Part shown: positions 5,015-55,094 of the stretch, piece by piece | How positions within the stretch are numbered: the stretch's first letter is position 1 | Layout: every line of letters starts with the position of its first letter | Source: Minisyncoccota bacterium | Lineage (GTDB): Bacteria > Patescibacteriota > Minisyncoccia > SW-4-49-11 | Assembly: GCA_032117235.1 (NCBI GenBank) | Contig: JAULZW010000003.1 | Location: 2,798 to 66,797 of the forward strand | Direction: 5' to 3' | Length of the DNA: 64,000 bases | Notes under the pieces: model-generated | Database searches by the model: none | The model's input: the letters and a program-made list of their open reading frames with translations, nothing else | What the model was told of the DNA's origin: nothing | Position numbers and translations under genes: made by a program

Positions 5015-5190
5015 AGTAGGATCTATACCTAACACCCCATAAACTGTACTCCCCGAGATGATGAGTACAAGAATCCAGATGAGGCTGGATTTTAGAAGTT
5101 TCATATGAATAGAATGAACCATACAATATTACATATATCAAAAACTACCTATTTTGTCAATATGTGACAAAATCGCTTTACGATTAATGC

Positions 5191-7563: not shown

Positions 7564-8418
7564 ATGGATACAAATAAAAAAACCTCTAAGTCCAATAATT
7601 TACCTGTTGTTATGGTTTTGATTATAATTCCTATTTTGTTTGTTTTTGGGACAATGATTGTAATAGCGATGGTAATGACTAGTAATAGACCTGATATCAA
7701 ATTAACTTTATCTGAGCCGACTGGGATTACAGATAATTCTACTACCTTTAGTGTAGATATTGAGGGGGACAAAGATAAAATTCAAAAAAAAGGTTTTGTA
7801 TATAGCACATCTAGTAATCCTGAGCTTAAATCTAAAAATAATAATTCCAGTCCGTTTTATAATTTATTTAATGGCTATTATAATTACTCGGAGTTTACAG
7901 GAACTTATGTAGAGATATCTGAAGACAAAAATAATTCCACAGCTACTAATTTAATCCCTGAAACCAAATATTATGTAAGAGCTTATGCAATTACTGGGTC
8001 AGGAATTAATTACAGCAATGAATTGTCTTTTACAACTAAACAAAGAGTGTCTTCGGCAAATGATGACATAAGAAGAAGTGATGTTAACTTTATTTTGAAC
8101 GGATTAATAGATTTGAGGAGACAGAGACCAGATATTTTTAATAGTATAAATGGATTAACTAAAAACATAAGAACTAGTGGATTTGGAGATTGTTCTTCAT
8201 CTACCATCAGAGATTCTGACTCTGTATTATATTTTGAGCTAGTGAAATATATTGGGGCAGAGAAAATAGGATATTATATGCCAGAAGATCCTAATTCTAA
8301 GTCGTTAGGATGTTCAGATTATAGTATAACTGTAAGCTCTAACAATATTATTATAACCGCTCCTAATGCAGAGTTTGGACCTATATCTGCATCATCTAAT
8401 GAAAGAAATGAAAGATAA
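7564..8418 (+). CDS. membrane-anchored extracellular protein with an FN3-like beta-sandwich segment
   Basis: N-terminal TM helix; TKYYVRAYAITGSGINYSNELSFTT is typical of fibronectin-III-like repeats; N/S-rich. Confidence 0.4.
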   Translation: MDTNKKTSKSNNLPVVMVLIIIPILFVFGTMIVIAMVMTSNRPDIKLTLSEPTGITDNSTTFSVDIEGDKDKIQKKGFVYSTSSNPELKSKNNNSSPFYNLFNGYYNYSEFTGTYVEISEDKNNSTATNLIPETKYYVRAYAITGSGINYSNELSFTTKQRVSSANDDIRRSDVNFILNGLIDLRRQRPDIFNSINGLTKNIRTSGFGDCSSSTIRDSDSVLYFELVKYIGAEKIGYYMPEDPNSKSLGCSDYSITVSSNNIIITAPNAEFGPISASSNERNER

Positions 8419-8501
8419 GAAATAATTACTCATATTGACAAATAAATAAATAATACCTATACTTAAACAAGACCTGATTATAAAAAATTAATATTAAACT
8501 T

Positions 8502-9044
8502 ATGTTTGAAGAATTTAGTCCAAGATTTGAATCAGCTTTCCGTACATTTTTAATGCTATGGGTTGTGGGTTGGGCGATTATAAATGGATTTACAACACTT
8601 GCTAGTTACGCTCAGTTCAGTATATCTAGCTATTCCAATGATGCACAATTGTTGGAGTGGTGGTTCAGAATTATAGTCTCTATTATAGCTTTAACTCTAG
8701 GTATAATTTTACTATTCTGGTCATCTAATGTTCCTAATAGAATTAAAAAGCTAAGACCTATTACTAATATTTCTTTATTTGTTGGTTTGACAATAGTTTA
8801 TTATCTATTCCCTACAGTTTCTAATATCTTGGTTGATCTCTCTTTTAATACCGAAGGAGCTTCTGCCTTAAAATTATTTATATTTCAGACAGCTTGGTTA
8901 TTCCCTAGTATAATTGTATTGGTGTTTCATATGTTATATTATATGAATATTAAAAAATACAACGAAATGTTAGAGGAGTCTCAAAATCAGCCACAAAACC
9001 CAAGTCCAGTTCAAAATCAACAAAATTTCACAATAGAACAATAG
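8502..9044 (+). CDS. hypothetical membrane protein (4 TM)
   Basis: Hydrophobicity pattern only. Confidence 0.4.
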   Translation: MFEEFSPRFESAFRTFLMLWVVGWAIINGFTTLASYAQFSISSYSNDAQLLEWWFRIIVSIIALTLGIILLFWSSNVPNRIKKLRPITNISLFVGLTIVYYLFPTVSNILVDLSFNTEGASALKLFIFQTAWLFPSIIVLVFHMLYYMNIKKYNEMLEESQNQPQNPSPVQNQQNFTIEQ

Positions 9045-24438: not shown

Positions 24439-26208
24439 ATGCCAGGAATTAATTTTAGGTCAATTATATTATCAGTATTGGAGGCGGATGAGAGAATTTG
24501 GTTTCAAAATGAAGAGGGAGAGAAGGAATTAAATCAAACTTTGCTTTTGGATTTGGTAGAAAAGATTGATGATAAGATTATTAATTTATTATTACAAGAG
24601 GAGGCTTTGAGAGAGAAGTTTTTTGCTAAAATTAGTCCAGATACTACTGAGAAGCAGTCTACTTATGTCTTCAAGATGAATGACTTTAGATTCTTTATGG
24701 AGGAGAATAAAATAGATAATTCTTATACAGCTTATAAAAACAGAATAGGGCTGATAGATGGGAAGAAATTCCTCAAAGATAGTAATGATATAGTGCTAAA
24801 TTGGCCGTATAAAGATTGTATTTTGGAAGGTGGGCAAAGTAATGAGGAAGGCACGGATAATTATTTTGAATACTCCGAAAAGACAGAGCAGTACGAACAA
24901 AAACAAGCTAAAAGAAAAGAGATATTTTTTAATTCCGTTCTTGCTCCTGATGAAATTGATAGATTATTAGACCCCAAGGCCTTGGTGAATTGGAAAAGGT
25001 TTACAGATAATGGTGAAGTTTCTTTAACCCAAAAACACTCCACCCCGTCACCTACGGTGCCACCCCTCAAGAGGGGAATTGATGGTACTATTGCTGAGAA
25101 TATGATTATCAAAGGTAATAATCTACTAGCTATGCATAGTCTCAAGAAGCAATTTGCAGGTAAAGTGAAGCTTATCTATATTGACCCGCCTTATAATACT
25201 GGGAATGATGGGTTTAAGTATAATGATAATTTTAATCATTCCACTTGGCTGACTTTTATGAAAAATAGATTAGAAGTAGCAAGGGAATTGTTAAGAGAGG
25301 ATGGAAGTATTTGGATAAGTTTAGATGATAAAGAATTTGCTTATCTAAAAGTACTTTGTGATGATATTTTTGGGAAAAATAATTTTTTGAATGATGTCAT
25401 TTGGAACTCAACAAAATCAGTAACAAATACTGCAATCATATCTGTTTCACATACACATAATTTAGTTTACTTCAAAAACAAAGATTATTATGTAAAGAAC
25501 AGAACAGAATTTAGACTTGATGAAGATGGGGAAGGATTTTCTAATCCTGACAATGATCCTCGTGGAGTTTGGAAATCCGATCCTTTTCAAGTTGGAGGCT
25601 GGAGACCAAATCAACAATATGAAATAAAAAACCCAAATACTGGAGTCATTTATAAACCAAATGAAAATTGTAGTTGGAAAAATGATCTTAACAAATTTCA
25701 AGAATTATTAAAAGATAATAGAATTGTTTTTGGAGTGGATGGAAAAGCTGGTCCACAAAGAAAAAGGTTTTTATTTGAAGCAGAAGAAAGAGGTAAAGTT
25801 ACAAAAACAATATGGGATGATGTAGGAACAACTACTAATGGAACTCAGCACATAAAAAAGCTTTTCAATAAAGCTGTATTTGATAATCCCAAACCAGAAG
25901 AGTTTATAAAAAGAATTATTGAACTTTCAACAAATGAAAACGACATTGTCCTTGACTATCATCTCGGATCTGGCACAACTGCCGCCGTAGCTCATAAAAT
26001 GGGGCGGCAATATATTGGGATTGAGCAGATGGATTATGTGGAGACTATTGCGGTGGAGAGGCTCAAAAAAGTGATAGGACAATCCACCTCCCCCGCTAAA
26101 GCGGGTACTACTCAAAAGGAGAATTTTAGGAAATTAACAGCAAAAAAAAGGCAAAGTTTGCAAGATATTTTGGAGAAAATAAAAAATTCTAATAATAGTT
26201 TAGGGTAA
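24439..26208 (+). CDS. mod: Type III restriction-modification DNA methyltransferase (Mod), N6-adenine, beta-class
   Basis: ENMIIKGNNLLAMHSL followed by motif IV DPPYNTG, then C-terminal motif I LDYHLGSGTTAAVAHKMGRQYIGIE; the N-terminus resembles Type III Mod N-termini. Confidence 0.85.
   Translation: MPGINFRSIILSVLEADERIWFQNEEGEKELNQTLLLDLVEKIDDKIINLLLQEEALREKFFAKISPDTTEKQSTYVFKMNDFRFFMEENKIDNSYTAYKNRIGLIDGKKFLKDSNDIVLNWPYKDCILEGGQSNEEGTDNYFEYSEKTEQYEQKQAKRKEIFFNSVLAPDEIDRLLDPKALVNWKRFTDNGEVSLTQKHSTPSPTVPPLKRGIDGTIAENMIIKGNNLLAMHSLKKQFAGKVKLIYIDPPYNTGNDGFKYNDNFNHSTWLTFMKNRLEVARELLREDGSIWISLDDKEFAYLKVLCDDIFGKNNFLNDVIWNSTKSVTNTAIISVSHTHNLVYFKNKDYYVKNRTEFRLDEDGEGFSNPDNDPRGVWKSDPFQVGGWRPNQQYEIKNPNTGVIYKPNENCSWKNDLNKFQELLKDNRIVFGVDGKAGPQRKRFLFEAEERGKVTKTIWDDVGTTTNGTQHIKKLFNKAVFDNPKPEEFIKRIIELSTNENDIVLDYHLGSGTTAAVAHKMGRQYIGIEQMDYVETIAVERLKKVIGQSTSPAKAGTTQKENFRKLTAKKRQSLQDILEKIKNSNNSLG
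25036..25080. repeat. 45-nt GC-rich palindromic element inserted in frame within mod (encodes HSTPSPTVPPLKRG-like segment)
   Basis: cactccaccccgtcacctacggtgccacccctcaagaggggaatt; 19-nt core GTGGCACCGTAGGTGACGG is identical (reverse complement) to 28105-28123; flanks match 29071-29112. Confidence 0.6.
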
Positions 26209-27728: not shown

Positions 27729-28115
27729 ATGAATGATAAATTAAAAAAATCATCTAATCAAACAATAGAGTCTAGCTCAGGTATTAAGAAAAACTTAATA
27801 ACTTCTACTGGTGATAAAAAAGATAATTCAATTATTTTATTTAATCAAAAAGAAGTTCGCAGATACTGGGATGCGGATCAAGAGCAGTGGTACTTTTCGG
27901 TTGTGGATGTGATTGAAATTTTGACAGGCTCTAGTATTCCGAAAAGATATTGGAGTGACTTAAAAAATAAACTAAAAGAAGAAGGAAGTGAAGTGTACGA
28001 AAAAATCGTACGGTTGAAAATGAAAGCAGAAGATGGAACAGGGATTAATAATCTTATGTTTAAACTACAACATTATCCTTTTAACTGTCCTCCCTTGGGG
28101 GAGGTGGCACCGTAG
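27729..28115 (+). CDS. Bro-N domain protein (128 aa)
   Basis: ILFNQKEVRRYWDADQEQWYFSVVDVIEILTGS matches the Bro-N/ORF6N consensus (iRvv..dGepWFvakDVa..Lg); the C-terminus and stop codon lie inside a GC-rich repeat element. Confidence 0.5.
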   Translation: MNDKLKKSSNQTIESSSGIKKNLITSTGDKKDNSIILFNQKEVRRYWDADQEQWYFSVVDVIEILTGSSIPKRYWSDLKNKLKEEGSEVYEKIVRLKMKAEDGTGINNLMFKLQHYPFNCPPLGEVAP

Positions 28116-28130
28116 GTGACGGAGGAGGAC
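28087..28130. repeat. GC-rich palindromic element copy (gtcctcccttgggggaggtggcaccgtaggtgacggaggaggac)
   Basis: 5' half near-identical to 52427-52452; core identical to the in-frame copy in mod. Confidence 0.6.
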
Positions 28131-49452: not shown

Positions 49453-50976
49453 TTAAGCAGTCTTTTCTCTGTACTGTAAAGCTTCAGCAATATGATTAAT
49501 TTTAATATCTTTAGAATTAGATAAATCAGCAATAGTTCTAGAAATTTTCAGAATTCTATTATAAGCTCTAGCAGATAAATTCATTTTACTGACAGCTTGA
49601 GATAAAAGTTGCTGAGATGCTTTATCCAAAATGCAAATCTCTTGAATTTGTTTTATATTCATTGCACTATTAGTTTTTATATCTAAATCTTGAAATCTCT
49701 GCCTTTGAATTTCTCTTGCATTTTCAACTCTTTGTCTAATTACTTCTGATGATTCTTCTAGTACTTCAGATGGTTGAATTAATTCTTCAGTTTTAACTTT
49801 TTCTATATTTATAATCATATCTATTCTATCCAAAAGTGGTCCTGATATTTTTTGCTGATATCTTACAATTTGAGCTTGGGAACAGATACACTCTCTATCA
49901 TTATCCGTAAGATATCCACAAGGACAAGGATTTTGGCTAGCAATAAGCATAAAGTCAGCAGGAAAAGTTAGCGATCCTTGGGCTCTAGAAATAGTTATAA
50001 TTCTATCTTCTAATGGTTGGCGTAAACTTTCTAAGACTAATCGCGGAAACTCTGGAAATTCGTCCATATAGAGTACTCCACGATGAGCAAGACTAATTTC
50101 TCCCGGTTTAGGAAAACTCCCGCCTCCGATTAAAGAAATAGATGATGCGGTATGGTGTGGTGCTCTAAATGGACGATTAAGAATTAATGGTTGCTCACTA
50201 TTTAAACTCCCTGCAATACTATAAAGCTGTGATACTTCTAAAACTTCATCCCTATCCATCATTGGTAAAATTGTAGGGATTGTCCTAGATAATAAAGTTT
50301 TGCCAGCTCCTGGTGGGCCAGTCATAAGGACATTGTGAGCTCCAGCAGCCGATATTTCTAAGGCTCTTTTAGCTAATTTTTGTCCCCTAATATAGGCCAT
50401 ATCTATATCACTCGTATGAAAAGTTGGCACAAAATCATACGAAGCGGTTGGTGTAATTGTGTTTGAAACTTTAGTATCAAAATGGTCTAAAACTTCTTGA
50501 ATGTGATTGATGGCAAGAATATTAATCCCTTCAACTAAAGAAGCCTCCTTAGCATTACTTGCTGGAATAATTAAATTTGGTATACCTTGCTCTTTAGAAT
50601 AAACTGTAATAGGCAAAATTCCCTGCACTGCTCTTATACTACCGTCTAAACCTAATTCTCCCAGAATTACATAATCTTTTTCTGGAAATTGAATTAACTC
50701 TAAAGCCTTCAAAATTGCAATTGCCATGGGTAAATCATAAGCAGTTCCGATTTTTTTGACTTCCGCTGGTGCTAGATTTAAGACAAATCTCTTTTGGGGA
50801 AGAACAATGCCACTATTTTTTAACCCCAATCTAATTCTTTCTTTAGCTTCATTGATAGCTGTATCTGGTAACCCAACAATAGTGATTCCAGGTAAACCCT
50901 GAGTCATATCTACTTCAATCTCTATTTTTTTACCATTAAGTCCAAGAGTTGAAGCTGATTGTACTCTAGATAACAT
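49453..50976 (-). CDS. comM: Mg-chelatase-like AAA+ ATPase YifB/ComM
   Basis: N-terminal Lon-SSD-like domain, Walker A GPPGAGKT, Walker B LYMDEFPEF, C-terminal ChlI region. Confidence 0.85.
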   Translation of the reverse strand: MLSRVQSASTLGLNGKKIEIEVDMTQGLPGITIVGLPDTAINEAKERIRLGLKNSGIVLPQKRFVLNLAPAEVKKIGTAYDLPMAIAILKALELIQFPEKDYVILGELGLDGSIRAVQGILPITVYSKEQGIPNLIIPASNAKEASLVEGINILAINHIQEVLDHFDTKVSNTITPTASYDFVPTFHTSDIDMAYIRGQKLAKRALEISAAGAHNVLMTGPPGAGKTLLSRTIPTILPMMDRDEVLEVSQLYSIAGSLNSEQPLILNRPFRAPHHTASSISLIGGGSFPKPGEISLAHRGVLYMDEFPEFPRLVLESLRQPLEDRIITISRAQGSLTFPADFMLIASQNPCPCGYLTDNDRECICSQAQIVRYQQKISGPLLDRIDMIINIEKVKTEELIQPSEVLEESSEVIRQRVENAREIQRQRFQDLDIKTNSAMNIKQIQEICILDKASQQLLSQAVSKMNLSARAYNRILKISRTIADLSNSKDIKINHIAEALQYREKTA

Positions 50977-50980
50977 AAAT

Positions 50981-52090
50981 TTAATCTCGAATAGGCATTA
51001 TTAGATAGTAAAAGTCTGGAGTGTCATCACTTTTCAAAATTACGGGAGAATCCGTATCGTTGAGATGAAATTGAATTGAACCTTCTTTGAATAATTGTAT
51101 TCCATCTAAAAGATAGTTATAATTAAAAGTAATTGTAATACCAGTATCTCCATTTATATGAACTGGTATTTTAGTTTTATTAGAACCAGTTTGAGAATCT
51201 GAGGAACTAACATTCAAGTTTTTATCATCTTGTAAATTTAATTTTACATCATTTACTGCATTTTGAGAAAATACAGAAGCTAATTTAATAGCTTGTACTA
51301 ATTCTTGACTATCACAATCAAAATTAGTTTTAAAGTTTTGAGGAATCAACCCTTCATATTGAGGAAAATTACCATCAATTAATTTAGAAACTATTTCAAC
51401 TGTATCAGCAACTAATTTAATTTGAGAAGCTCCAAATTGAATATTAACATTAGTTTCCTCTACTGCATCCAAAACTCGAATAATCTCAGCTACGGTTTTA
51501 CTAGGAATAATCACAGAAAAATTATCTCCTTCCAAATTATTTAGATTAACTTTTTTCTCACTTAATCTAAAACCGTCTGTACCTACAAAAATTAATTGAT
51601 TATCTTTTTTAGCTAAATAAACACCGGCAATTTCTGGACGGAATTCATTTTTAGGCAAAGACCCATAAACTGATTTAAAACCTTGTTTCAAATCAGTGCT
51701 AGTAATACTGATTTGATTTTCTAATTCTATTTCTGGTAAATTAGGAAAATCTTCAGCAATAATTCCCTTGAATTGAGCTTGAATATCTTGTCCTTGTTCA
51801 ATTGTCAATTCATCATTTTCTACACTCAAATTCAATTTATCCTGTGGTAGGTTTCTAATATAAGCAAGTAAAGTATCTTGAGGGATACAAATTGCCCCTT
51901 CAGAGTCCTCTTTACCACGAATATGAACTCTTATTCCAATTTCAAGATTAGTTGAGCTTATTGTAAGCGATCCTTGCTTACCTTGTAATAAAAAAGTTTG
52001 TAAAACTGGTAAGGTTGTAGCTCGTGAAGAACTCTGACGAGCTATATTCAAACCTTTTAGTAAATTTTCTTGCAAACAGGTAAATTTCAT
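50981..52090 (-). CDS. dnaN: DNA polymerase III beta sliding clamp
   Basis: 369 aa with a three-domain clamp pattern; N-terminus MKFTCLQENLLKGL typical of DnaN; adjacent to dnaA. Confidence 0.85.
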   Translation of the reverse strand: MKFTCLQENLLKGLNIARQSSSRATTLPVLQTFLLQGKQGSLTISSTNLEIGIRVHIRGKEDSEGAICIPQDTLLAYIRNLPQDKLNLSVENDELTIEQGQDIQAQFKGIIAEDFPNLPEIELENQISITSTDLKQGFKSVYGSLPKNEFRPEIAGVYLAKKDNQLIFVGTDGFRLSEKKVNLNNLEGDNFSVIIPSKTVAEIIRVLDAVEETNVNIQFGASQIKLVADTVEIVSKLIDGNFPQYEGLIPQNFKTNFDCDSQELVQAIKLASVFSQNAVNDVKLNLQDDKNLNVSSSDSQTGSNKTKIPVHINGDTGITITFNYNYLLDGIQLFKEGSIQFHLNDTDSPVILKSDDTPDFYYLIMPIRD

Positions 52091-52201
52091 ATCTTATCTA
52101 TCTTAAACTATACTTTAATTATACCCTGAATAATTTGTTTTTACTAGATTTGTATTTTTTGTTCTTTATTTATTATATATATAATAGTAGATAGTAGTAT
52201 C

Positions 52202-52397
52202 TGTGGAAAAGCTTAAAACTGGTTTTTACCCGCATAAATAGTGTATGTCAAGTGGGGATATCATTTGGGATAAGTATCTGTAAACTTTGGGGATAAGATT
52301 ATATGTAGAAAATCTCTGTGGATTAAGTTCTATTTATACACAATATTATTCACAGAAATAGAGGGATTCTGTATAAGTTATACACAGGTTATACACA
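52202..52397. promoter_or_regulatory. DnaA-box cluster in the dnaA-dnaN spacer (putative oriC core)
   Basis: Perfect TTATNCACA boxes at 52334-52342, 52346-52354, 52378-52386 and 52389-52397 (same orientation); imperfect inverted boxes TGTGGAAAA at 52202-52210 and TGTGGATTA at 52307-52315. Confidence 0.6.
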
Positions 52398-52426
52398 ATG
52401 GTAAAATATAATGTAAATAAACGATT

Positions 52427-52466
52427 GTCCTCCTTAGGAGGAGGTGGCACGAAGTGCCGGAGGTGG
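52427..52466. repeat. GC-rich palindromic element copy inside the oriC region
   Basis: gtcctccttaggaggaggtggcacgaagtgccggaggtgg; 5' half matches 28087-28112. Confidence 0.55.
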
Positions 52467-52530
52467 ATAGAGATAAAAGTTATTTATATTTTCTAATAAT
52501 ATTAAATTTTAGAATATGGACTTACTTTTA

Positions 52531-52590
52531 CCCACCCCCGCCTTTCAGGCTTCCCCCCTCCCTGCCTACCGCAGGCAGGCAAAGGGGGAC
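52531..52590. repeat. C-rich/G-rich palindromic element (cccacccccgcctttcaggcttcccccctccctgcctaccgcaggcaggcaaagggggac)
   Basis: Same cctcc...stem-loop...caaaggggg architecture; lies between the DnaA boxes and the AT-rich DUE-like tract. Confidence 0.5.
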
Positions 52591-52595
52591 AAAAA

Positions 52596-52703
52596 CATAA
52601 TGTCACAACTATAAAAAATATAAAATCATAACAAAATATAATAATAAATTAATTAATAATGCTATAGACAATAGTAAATGTTAAAAATAAATAACAACAA
52701 CTA
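52596..52703. promoter_or_regulatory. AT-rich tract, candidate DNA-unwinding element of oriC
   Basis: About 90% A+T over about 100 nt immediately adjacent to the DnaA-box cluster. Confidence 0.4.
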
Positions 52704-52732
52704 TTGACGAAATTAGGAAAATGTGGTATATA
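52704..52732 (+). promoter_or_regulatory. sigma70-like promoter TTGACG-N17-TGgTATATA
   Basis: Near-consensus -35 and extended -10 with 17-nt spacer, immediately upstream of a GC-elevated segment. Confidence 0.4.
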
Positions 52733-52740
52733 TAGTTTTG

Positions 52741-53050
52741 TAAACATCGCCGATTTTTCCATGGACGAATCAACCGAAACTGAATTTCTTTCACTGACCA
52801 GCCATGACGGGCCTGTCTACATTCGACCAGATCTGATAGTGGCTGTTTCAGAATAATATGTCGGCGGTTCGAACAACAGGACCAGGATAGATTTAAGCAC
52901 AGGGTCATCTGTTTTGGTAACACAACCAGGCGAGTCTATAATGAGAGCAATAAATGCAAAAATTGTTGAGGTATAAACAATTCATTCATTTAAATCCATA
53001 TTTTAAACTCTCCCTACACTCCTTCCATCTTGGTCGGAGTGTTTTTTGTT
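52741..53050 (+). other. GC-elevated transcription unit of uncertain nature: structured ncRNA candidate, or interrupted small CDS (71 codons with an in-frame TAA)
   Basis: GC well above the flanks, promoter upstream, hairpin plus T-run terminator at 53015-53050. The + frame reads MDESTETEFLSLTSHDGPVYIRPDLIVAVSE*YVGGSNNRTRIDLSTGSSVLVTQPGESIMRAINAKIVEV. Confidence 0.3.
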
Positions 53051-53101
53051 TAATATATTAAGTCAATTAGTAGTTTTATGTAAGTATAACGCTACTAATC
53101 C

Positions 53102-54541
53102 CTAAGAATTTACCGGATTTTCTTCATTATAGAGTTTATTTTTAATCATAGTAATATCCTGCTCCAAAGTATAGTTGGAAATTAATTCTTTTTTGATCTT
53201 ATTCCAAGCATGCATAACCGTACTATGATCTTTACCACCTAAAGCCTCACCAATATTAGGAAAGGTTAATTTCAACTCTTCACGGATTAAATACATAGCA
53301 ATTTGGCGTGGTACAGCAATATCTTTTTTACGGCTTTTAGATAATATATCCTCTTTTTTAATATTAAAGTGCCCAGAAACAATTTCCAAAATCATATCTA
53401 TATTTACAATTCTTTGAGAGTGAATTTGACCACCTTCAATCAGTTTATCTACCAATTCAGGAGTAATTTTAGTATTAAGTAACTGTACTCTAGCAATAAT
53501 TTTATTTAAAGCACCTTCTAACTCTCGCACATTGCTTTTGATTCTCTCAGCAATAACATAAATAATCTCGTCATCTAAATCAAAATGTTTTTGAATACAT
53601 TTGCTTTTCAAAATAGCCACTCTAGTTTCAAATTCAGGAATAGCTACATCCACAATCATTCCACCTTCAAAGCGAGATTTTAATCTATCATTAAGGGTTT
53701 TAATAGCACTAGGTGGTCTATCGCTAGTAAAAACAATTTGTTTATTATGAGCATATAATTCATTAAAAGTATTAAAAACCTCATATTGAGTGGCCTCTTT
53801 CCCTCCAATAAATTGAATATCGTCAATTATTAGCAAGTCCACCGCTCTATGCCTAGCTTTAAAGTCATCCATTTTCCCATTTTTGAGAGAATTCATCAAA
53901 TCTGAGATAAAAACATCCGAAGTTACATACAGAATATTTTTATTATTCTTCACCAATTTATTAGCAATAGCTTGAATCAAATGAGTTTTACCAAGTCCCA
54001 CACCACCATAAATAAATAAAGGATTATATCTAGTACCAGGCTCATTTGCTACCGATTGAGCAGCAGCATGAGCGAGTTCATTAGATGAACCTACAATAAA
54101 GTTTTCAAAAGTATAATTGTCTTTTAATAAAGAAATTCCAGTTGATTTTGTGACTTTTACAAAATTATTATTAGTCTCAGAAGTAAAGCTACCATTAGCT
54201 ATATTGACTTCAGACAGAGCTTCTCTCTGAGATTGAAGCTCCTGATCCTTTAGATTAATAACTGATTTAATAGATTTAGAGTTTGTTTTTTGGTTATTTT
54301 TAACTACATATCTAACTTTTTTTACCGAACCAGTAATTTTTTGAATAGAATTAAGAATAGTAAGGTTGAATTTATTTTCTAGCCAATTACGAGTAAAAGC
54401 ACTAGGAACACAAATTACAATCTCACTTTCATCCATACTAATAGGATAAGTGTTTTTAATCCAGGTATTAAATTGAGGTTTACTAATATTAAGTTCTATT
54501 TCACCTAATACAGAATTCCAAACTCTTTGTTTCTCGTCCAT
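53102..54541 (-). CDS. dnaA: chromosomal replication initiator DnaA
   Basis: AAA+ Walker A GGVGLGKTHL, Walker B LLIIDDIQF, sensor motifs, C-terminal DNA-binding domain IAMYLIREELKLTFPNIGEALGGKDHSTV. Confidence 0.9.
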   Translation of the reverse strand: MDEKQRVWNSVLGEIELNISKPQFNTWIKNTYPISMDESEIVICVPSAFTRNWLENKFNLTILNSIQKITGSVKKVRYVVKNNQKTNSKSIKSVINLKDQELQSQREALSEVNIANGSFTSETNNNFVKVTKSTGISLLKDNYTFENFIVGSSNELAHAAAQSVANEPGTRYNPLFIYGGVGLGKTHLIQAIANKLVKNNKNILYVTSDVFISDLMNSLKNGKMDDFKARHRAVDLLIIDDIQFIGGKEATQYEVFNTFNELYAHNKQIVFTSDRPPSAIKTLNDRLKSRFEGGMIVDVAIPEFETRVAILKSKCIQKHFDLDDEIIYVIAERIKSNVRELEGALNKIIARVQLLNTKITPELVDKLIEGGQIHSQRIVNIDMILEIVSGHFNIKKEDILSKSRKKDIAVPRQIAMYLIREELKLTFPNIGEALGGKDHSTVMHAWNKIKKELISNYTLEQDITMIKNKLYNEENPVNS

Positions 54542-54573
54542 TGCAATCGTCTAATTGATGATGTTTATAAACT

Positions 54574-54582
54574 GTGGATAAG
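54574..54582. promoter_or_regulatory. perfect DnaA box TGTGGATAA 33 nt upstream of the dnaA start (autoregulatory box)
   Basis: Exact consensus seen directly. Confidence 0.5.
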
Positions 54583-54715
54583 TTGATTTCATTATACTCT
54601 ATTAGAGAATTTTTGCAAAGATACCCCTATTAAAGATTGAGTATTAGCTATAGTTCACTTTTATTTCACTTTTGAGATTAAAGAAAAAAATCCTAGCATT
54701 TCACTAGGATTTTAA

Positions 54716-54856
54716 TTAGGGATATCGTTCTTTTAAGATGCTATCTAGATTGTGTGTAAGTTCTTTTTTATACTTTTCTTCAAAATCAGGGTGCCTAGAT
54801 TCAGGCATTCCTTCTTTAAGATGCAAATCATTTTCTTCTAACAAAGGATTTAACAT
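54716..54856 (-). CDS. small ORF (46 aa) with its own terminator, upstream of dnaA
   Basis: ATG..TAA ORF MLNPLLEENDLHLKEGMPESRHPDFEEKYKKELTHNLDSILKERYP, followed on the minus strand by hairpin aaatcctag..ctaggattt plus T7 (54682-54712). Confidence 0.25.
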   Translation of the reverse strand: MLNPLLEENDLHLKEGMPESRHPDFEEKYKKELTHNLDSILKERYP

Positions 54857-55094
54857 GTATGCATTTTGTTAAATTTTCAAAATAACAATAACATAAAAAT
54901 ATAATTTTAGCAAGTAGATGCTTCTCTTAAGAGTTACAATATAGTTAATTGTATTTTATATAAATCATATTAGATGACTTTTCCGTGTCCCATACTATAT
55001 ATCTATATAAAACAAATACTTCATACTTGTTACCAAACCTTGACTTTATGATTAAGATAGTTTATAATACTCTTTAATTATGTATTTATAAATT

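Follow-up and report, generated by a model that had tools for sequence, protein, structure and literature searches.

A putative orphan small-protein gene, interrupted by a nonsense codon, in the strain-variable dnaN-dnaA spacer of a Minisyncoccota bacterium

The GC-rich unit beside the replication origin of this bacterium, originally put forward as a candidate non-coding RNA or an interrupted small gene, reads as a copy of a small protein gene that is specific to its lineage and is here interrupted by a nonsense codon. Comparison with its relatives suggests that it is probably a real transcription unit that codes for an orphan small protein and has been inactivated in this strain, and that it is likely to be a monocistronic protein-coding gene and not an RNA gene. 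Our best guess is that it is an accessory gene derived from a mobile element, which spread recently and is now decaying here. Throughout, the window denotes the whole stretch of 64,000 nucleotides that was analyzed, and related contigs are cited by their labels (L001, L002 and so on).

The genes dnaN (50981-52090) and dnaA (53102-54541), both on the minus strand, are separated by a spacer of 1011 bp, and the neighboring genes are dnaN itself, a comM-like gene, dnaA, rpmH, rnpA and yidC. Within the spacer, the DnaA-box motif TTATNCACA has nine matches at no more than one mismatch, four of them perfect, between 52202 and 52420; this is the densest cluster of the window and it adjoins the unit, so that the original placement next to oriC holds, although the cluster itself is context and lies outside the transcription unit. 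Between these boxes and an AT-rich tract, at 52430-52600, two GC-rich hairpin elements can be seen in the sequence, consisting of GGAGGTGGCACGAAGTGCCGGAGGTGG and of CCCCGCC...CCTGCCTACCGCAGGCAGG...GGGGG. The pair occurs in a single copy within the window, is missing from L006 and L022 or takes another form there, and is duplicated together with the whole module in L009 (copies at 69-250 and 714-890 of the reverse-complemented contig), and L001 carries a second, inverted hairpin copy at another locus (1277-1370). The pair has the appearance of a dispersed repeat of small size (MITE- or REP-like) that has inserted into oriC. The AT-rich tract (52601-52703), located directly upstream of the promoter, is 96-100% identical to that of the distant relatives L001, L004, L006 and L009 and is a candidate DNA-unwinding element; the GC content over 52600-52799 is 0.245. 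Elsewhere in the window, the two arms of a GC-rich 31-nt inverted repeat (25045-25075 and 28092-28122), 84% complementary, lie 3 kb apart in AT-rich surroundings.

The neighborhood of dnaA also differs between strains in other respects. Despite a 100% identical dnaA, the DnaA-box region (window 52212-52460) is only 76-94% identical per 50-nt bin to L002 and L011, and L012 has a 48-nt insertion, in two blocks, in the same region; the origin boxes appear to undergo fast turnover. Strain-variable insertions around dnaA occupy related loci that include window 54682-55034, L002 5017-5796, L001 4575-5333 and an 8085-8772 region. Strains of the L002 type carry an ORF of 259 amino acids upstream of dnaA (L002 5017-5796) that is missing from the window (54682-55034), L001 has an ORF of 252 amino acids within the dnaN-dnaA spacer, and the contig of P0001, L004 and L020 share a gene pair upstream of dnaA that comprises a 54-aa ORF and a PIN-domain gene.

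The promoter originally described, TTGACG-N17-TGgTATATA, was found on the plus strand at 52704-52732. Its -35 hexamer TTGACG (52704-52709) is separated by a 17-nt spacer, within the 16-18 nt required of a sigma-70-type promoter, from an extended -10 element in which TATATA (52727-52732) is immediately preceded by TGG; promoter activity is predicted from this sequence match. The pattern TTGACA-N14-TGnTATATA, allowing up to one mismatch, has two sites in 64 kb, compared with 0.06 expected by chance, and the only site besides this one lies on the minus strand at 5132-5160. A generic promoter scanner overlooked 52704-52732 because it requires a T at the last -10 position. At position 52709, the window and L015 have G, and the other seven aligned alleles have the consensus A. 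In the databases the gene is called with 90 amino acids from the TTG of the -35 box, a start that is almost certainly placed too far upstream. The two tandem modules of L009 cease to be homologous immediately downstream of the -10 box.

The unit is closed on the same strand by the hairpin and T6 of an intrinsic terminator, again as originally described, here placed at 53016-53048. The 7-bp stem with an inner 3-bp stem (53016-53042) is followed directly by T6 (53043-53048), so that a GC-rich hairpin and a U-tract stand on the transcribed strand; the predicted energy is -13.4 kcal/mol, with z = -4.9 relative to shuffled sequences. The element is conserved, its stem shows one compensatory exchange of an A-U for a G-C pair among relatives, and the same terminator ends the alternative payloads of L012, L018, L020 and L022 and of unit 1 in L009. 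A terminator scanner missed it because its apical part is longer than the loop limit of the program.

Between these signals lies, on the plus strand, the 71-codon ORF with one in-frame TAA that had been read from the sequence, confirmed here at 52761-52976 with its ATG at 52761, its terminal TAA at 52974-52976 and an identical translation. The GC content of the ORF (42.6%) exceeds that of the window (32.0%), and 200-nt windows over the ORF reach 0.41; the elevation is thus real, but the statement that it surpasses everything around was too strong, as 52400-52599 reaches 0.42 and comM (50000-50500) reaches 0.38-0.41. By codon position, the GC content declines from the first to the third (0.49, 0.42, 0.375), as is usual for coding sequences in AT-rich genomes. 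A Shine-Dalgarno-like 4-mer precedes only 3 of the 47 window ORFs of at least 150 amino acids, and its lack at this ORF is therefore normal here. The interrupting TAA, at codon 32 (52854-52856), corresponds in relatives to TTA (Leu) or TCA (Ser); the homologue P0007, for instance, reads SELY where the window reads SE-stop-Y, and the window sequence offers no in-frame restart codon between the TAA and codon 61. Recoding of the TAA, one of the original suggestions, finds no support: TAA serves as the main stop of the window (TAA 34, TAG 9, TGA 4 in the same 47 ORFs), and the codon stands in a TAA-T context. Comparison of orthologous spacers, which had been proposed as a check, yielded intact orthologues of 71-72 codons in L001-L009, and every relative found with the gene has an intact CDS at the same position; by the refuting condition set originally, this resolves the unit as an interrupted protein gene. 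With intact syntenic homologues in the dnaN-dnaA spacer and a disabling stop here, the idea of a broken small gene is borne out, and the ORF of this genome has the marks of a recent pseudogene that arose by a TTA- or TCA-to-TAA change at codon 32.

The stop itself might be an artefact of sequencing or consensus calling, or a hypervariable site might be represented here by a minority variant, the gene being intact in the organism. It falls on one of the most variable columns of the alignment (position 52855 is T, C or A among alleles, and 52852 shows all four bases), and a metagenome consensus can mislead at polymorphic sites. Moreover, the truncated product has no recorded gene call, database records having been found neither for a 50-aa nor for a 31-aa product. 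The DnaA protein of the window is encoded without change in ten contigs. Among these, L015 (Logan assembly of SRR22423862) matches the window at 100% identity over 4476 bp and has the same TAA together with the otherwise unique G of the -35 box, which speaks against an artefact, as does the position of the site outside any homopolymer. The reads behind L015 and the window may be the same, in which case the TAA could still represent an error common to both or a minority allele. On balance, we regard an intact gene behind an erroneous stop as rather improbable, and a genuine nonsense mutation as the better reading.

An alternative in which the unit encodes a structured non-coding or small RNA, its ORF-like sequence being due to chance, would account for the unit having its own promoter and terminator, for its raised GC content and for a minimum free energy of 52738-53050 that lies somewhat below that of shuffled sequences (z = -2.4). 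The Rfam scan of 52000-53200, at E-values up to 10, returned no family near its gathering threshold, the best matches being eukaryotic snoRNA and miRNA models with 15-23 bits against thresholds of 40-200, and ARAGORN detected no tRNA or tmRNA over the 64-kb window. RNAalifold on eight alleles gave a covariation term of +0.81, variable columns break the predicted pairs, and the sole compensatory pair is that of the terminator. Furthermore, the reading frame is kept in every other allele found: the only indel inside the ORF alignment is 3 nt long and in frame, and those in the flanks are 1 nt long. The RNA interpretation originally considered is thus not supported, and we rate it as very improbable compared with a protein-coding gene.

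Sequences of the opposite strand were also considered, since the antisense frame could be a real gene under purifying selection and the sense ORF its shadow. This ORF (52923 down to 52681, 78-80 amino acids; 80 in the window) is open in the window and in five of the seven other alleles; the most variable sense codon position, the second (19 of 37 columns), is its wobble position, and its pN/pS is 0.45. A low pN/pS is, however, found in any frame whose wobble falls on sense position 2, including the sense +2 frame (0.31). The antisense frame is broken by a TAA in two of the eight alleles (L004, L008), it crosses the sense promoter and the AT-rich tract, an antisense promoter was missing from the scan results, and the T-run of the terminator lies on the plus strand. 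Its composition, rich in Cys, Trp and Arg, is typical of an antisense read, and its AlphaFold model (pLDDT 54, pTM 0.32) is poorer than that of the sense product (73, 0.56). On the basis of the two broken alleles, the overlap with the sense promoter and the poor model, the antisense ORF was rejected as a gene; a role for it is extremely unlikely, and the sense ORF is retained as the payload of the unit.

To characterize the product, the read-through translation was compared with protein, profile and structure databases. The search recovered seven protein clusters, 83-90% identical and all without the stop, whose members add two further variants. All homologues of the gene lie in the same dnaN-dnaA spacer, and one is found in a GTDB representative genome labeled Candidatus Paceibacteria bacterium (L009; sample label ME2015-09-13); the 71-aa gene is found only in a few freshwater Paceibacteria. 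Neither the window product nor the seven intact homologues had a usable match in Pfam, at E-values up to 10, or in PHROGs, PADLOC or PDB sequences; a HMMER profile run against 1.84 billion cluster representatives retrieved only its own cluster, and tblastn and blastn against phage genomes, as well as scans of IMG/VR, gave no sequence match. By these searches the gene family appears to be a true orphan.

The AlphaFold model, built on an input alignment of only seven near-identical sequences, predicts five β-strands and a C-terminal helix, with the moderate pLDDT and the pTM given above. Foldseek against BFVD returned many phage proteins of 60-75 amino acids (TM 0.65-0.76, E 1e-3 to 1e-2), several of which are named 'Flagellar and swarming motility protein' (TM 0.67-0.70, E 2e-3 to 2e-2), although many unnamed proteins score equally; PDB structure matches were weak, with LytTR, PH-like and chemokine folds all at E > 0.02 and no solved FlbD structure among them. 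The suggested resemblance to small FlbD-like proteins may therefore hold at the level of the predicted fold but fails at that of the family. Like FlbD/SwrD (PF06289) and the phage proteins so named, the product has about 70 amino acids, predicted β-strands followed by a C-terminal helix, and the loose sequence pattern noted originally. Unlike them, it lacks a match to the PF06289 HMM at E up to 10 and to any phage sequence searched, its fold agrees equally well with many unnamed phage proteins and weakly with the PDB folds above, and its gene sits between dnaN and dnaA, away from any flagellar operon or flagellar neighbors. The likeness to FlbD/SwrD is thus at most one of modeled fold, and family membership is not indicated.

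The gene forms part of a block of about 600 bp (52462-53060) that seems to have been exchanged laterally, with 88-100% identity per 50-nt bin and mostly 94-100%. The genomes sharing this block (L001, L004, L009) have a dnaA that is only about 80% identical to that of the window (dS 1.2-1.35, dN 0.11), which agrees with the original notion of a recent acquisition: species in which synonymous sites of the flanking genes have reached saturation share the block in near-identical form. Conversely, the dnaA genes of the window and L002 show no difference in 482 codons, and the 26 mismatches and 5 gaps in the aligned region 52426-54682 relative to L002/L011 all lie outside dnaA; 16 mismatches fall in the ORF in the comparison with L002. 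The window allele is closest to that of L009 (7 differences), whose dnaA is distant, and all four gametes occur at 11 of 28 informative site pairs, indicating mosaic alleles. These patterns suggest that the cassette spread recently between species by recombination.

Within the ORF, changes relative to the consensus comprise 41 nonsynonymous, 6 synonymous and 1 stop. The 6 synonymous changes among 48 compare with 12.4 expected (expected fraction 0.26; binomial p = 0.02 for eight recombining alleles), and the mean pN/pS of the ORF is 2.1, likewise from eight alleles with recombination present. A single stop against 1.8 expected under neutrality matches neutral evolution, so that this count gives no statistical sign of selection for an open frame. 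Variable columns number 37 in 213 nt of ORF (10, 19 and 8 at codon positions 1, 2 and 3), seven of them with three or four states, compared with 13 in the approximately 160 nt of the upstream flank. An initial picture of a hypervariable core in invariant flanks weakened upon counting, as the flanks vary too (0.08-0.14 changes per site, compared with 0.23 in the ORF), and a rough estimate puts none of three measures (count of multi-state columns, length of the longest run without variation, rate heterogeneity among sites) clearly beyond chance. The ORF seems to have evolved in a non-purifying, probably diversifying manner, for which support in terms of dN/dS > 1 is modest (p = 0.02).

Diversity-generating retroelements are common in this bacterial radiation, and the ORF might conceivably be the variable region of such an element or of another targeted hypermutation system. 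This would fit the strong localization of the differences outside an unchanged dnaA, the several columns with three or four states, and the concentration of changes at codon positions 1 and 2. The 64-kb window, however, contains no second, template-like copy of the ORF and no ORF with reverse-transcriptase motifs, and an invariant 31-mer gave one match in the genome-contig scan, in the 8 kb of the GTDB representative that were returned (L009). Variation is not restricted to adenines, as 13 of the 37 variable columns never contain A and the seven A's of the invariant 31-mer never vary. A TNA codon able to become a stop is atypical of such templates, differences occur outside the ORF as well, and the sharing of alleles across species fits recombination. 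Targeted hypermutation is consequently hardly credible here, and recombinational spread of the cassette is the reading that we carry forward.

The 71-aa gene is one of at least three alternative payloads in the same slot. In L012 and L018, whose DnaA protein is identical to that of the window at 99.3% DNA identity, the slot holds another gene, encoding an unrelated two-helix membrane protein of about 76-84 amino acids, between a related promoter and the same terminator. This family (P0017-P0021; 71-84 amino acids, two helices) is found only in the dnaN-dnaA spacer, at L012 4097-4351 (minus strand), in L018, at L020 3501-3716 and at L022 1913-2143. Its dN/dS of about 0.4, at dS of 0.2-0.7, suggests that it behaves like an older resident under constraint. 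The third payload occurs in L009, where the whole module of hairpins, AT tract, promoter, payload and terminator is duplicated in tandem (1-1392 of the reverse-complemented contig); unit 1 encodes a hydrophobic peptide of 39-46 amino acids (MKLPSSTRVMVTVAMIIATPLALIHILFFRQDKADKVVN), and its mRNA may be leaderless, since its ATG lies a few nucleotides past the -10 box. By analogy, this peptide resembles a type I toxin.

Several known systems share features with the slot, and a literature search returned nothing on this type of locus. As with the accessory genes of flexible islets and integron-like cassettes, unrelated small genes occupy one fixed slot in near-identical strains, can be stacked in tandem (L009) and are exchanged as alleles between species. 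In contrast to integron-like cassettes, the surroundings of the slot showed neither an integrase nor an attC-like site, each cassette brings its own promoter and terminator, and the slot lies inside the oriC region; the conserved cassette ends, i.e. promoter and terminator, are likely to serve as recombination arms. Similar to type I toxin-like peptide genes, the alternative payloads are short, hydrophobic and membrane-directed, with strong promoters (39-46 amino acids for L009 unit 1, 71-84 for L012, L020 and L022), and one of them stands in tandem with the 71-aa gene. The payload of the window differs from these in being soluble, acidic and β-rich, an antisense RNA partner was not detected, and PADLOC returned nothing. 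In Escherichia coli, mioC and gidA are transcription units that flank the replication origin. The present unit resembles them in having a strong promoter beside an AT-rich tract and DnaA boxes that fires away from the origin, but it encodes small proteins of its own and varies between strains, and an effect on the origin is not implied by the likeness.

The position of the unit suggests another alternative, in which only transcription matters: the promoter would fire away from the AT-rich unwinding region of oriC, the terminator would protect dnaA, and the payload would be nearly free to vary, to be exchanged or to contain stops. Promoter and terminator are indeed kept across three unrelated payloads, the upstream flank is less variable than the ORF by the counts given above, the ORF is without purifying selection, a nonsense allele persists in the population, and the unit adjoins the DnaA-box cluster and the AT-rich tract. 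Nevertheless, all three payloads are filled by an ORF near the predicted transcription start, for which chance is an improbable explanation at 32% GC. The membrane-protein payload is constrained as a protein (dN/dS of about 0.4), the sense product has a credible predicted fold, and synonymous sites of the ORF change less than nonsynonymous ones, unlike the neutral prediction. Weighing both sides, we consider a purely transcriptional role unlikely, and a gene for a small protein remains the favored explanation.

In the mechanism that we propose from the sequence, the strong sigma-70-type promoter at the edge of the oriC AT-tract would initiate transcription away from the origin, giving an RNA of about 300 nt. 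This RNA would have a leader of about 20 nt without a Shine-Dalgarno sequence, as for most genes here, would contain the 71-codon ORF and would stop at the intrinsic terminator, shortly before it reaches the 3′ end of dnaA, which is transcribed towards it. The encoded product would be a cytoplasmic, slightly acidic protein with five predicted β-strands packed by a C-terminal helix, a fold that is common among phage proteins of 60-75 amino acids, including ones named FlbD/SwrD-like. In this strain, the TAA at codon 32 would disable the gene, leaving at most a 31-residue fragment, in addition to the unique A-to-G change of the -35 box. The gene fills a promoter-payload-terminator slot in the dnaN-dnaA spacer where close strains carry other small genes, and the cassette would have spread between species by recombination, its mostly amino-acid-changing substitutions pointing to diversifying or at least non-purifying selection. 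For the product, our best guess is a small protein that binds or acts as an adaptor, derived from a mobile element, dispensable to the cell and, speculatively, engaged in genetic conflict.

A more far-reaching version, in which the spacer is a dedicated swap slot, made up of a conserved promoter and terminator at the origin, for cross-species small-protein cassettes and the 71-aa FlbD-fold protein is a recently swept, positively selected conflict factor with a functional placement at oriC, seems doubtful to us. If it were true, the protein might, for example, come from a phage and modulate replication initiation or a defence system, and the oriC site would provide maximal dosage or coupling to origin unwinding. 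As a pseudogene the locus is ordinary; its moderate interest lies in being a strain-variable, laterally exchanged small-gene slot beside oriC in a bacterial group that is not yet culturable. The origin region of these tiny genomes appears to undergo fast, local turnover, with different genes in the slot next to an identical DnaA protein and a 600-bp cassette almost unchanged among species whose neighboring genes are saturated at synonymous sites. If functional, the slot would tie accessory small proteins, or their transcription, to the biology of the replication origin.
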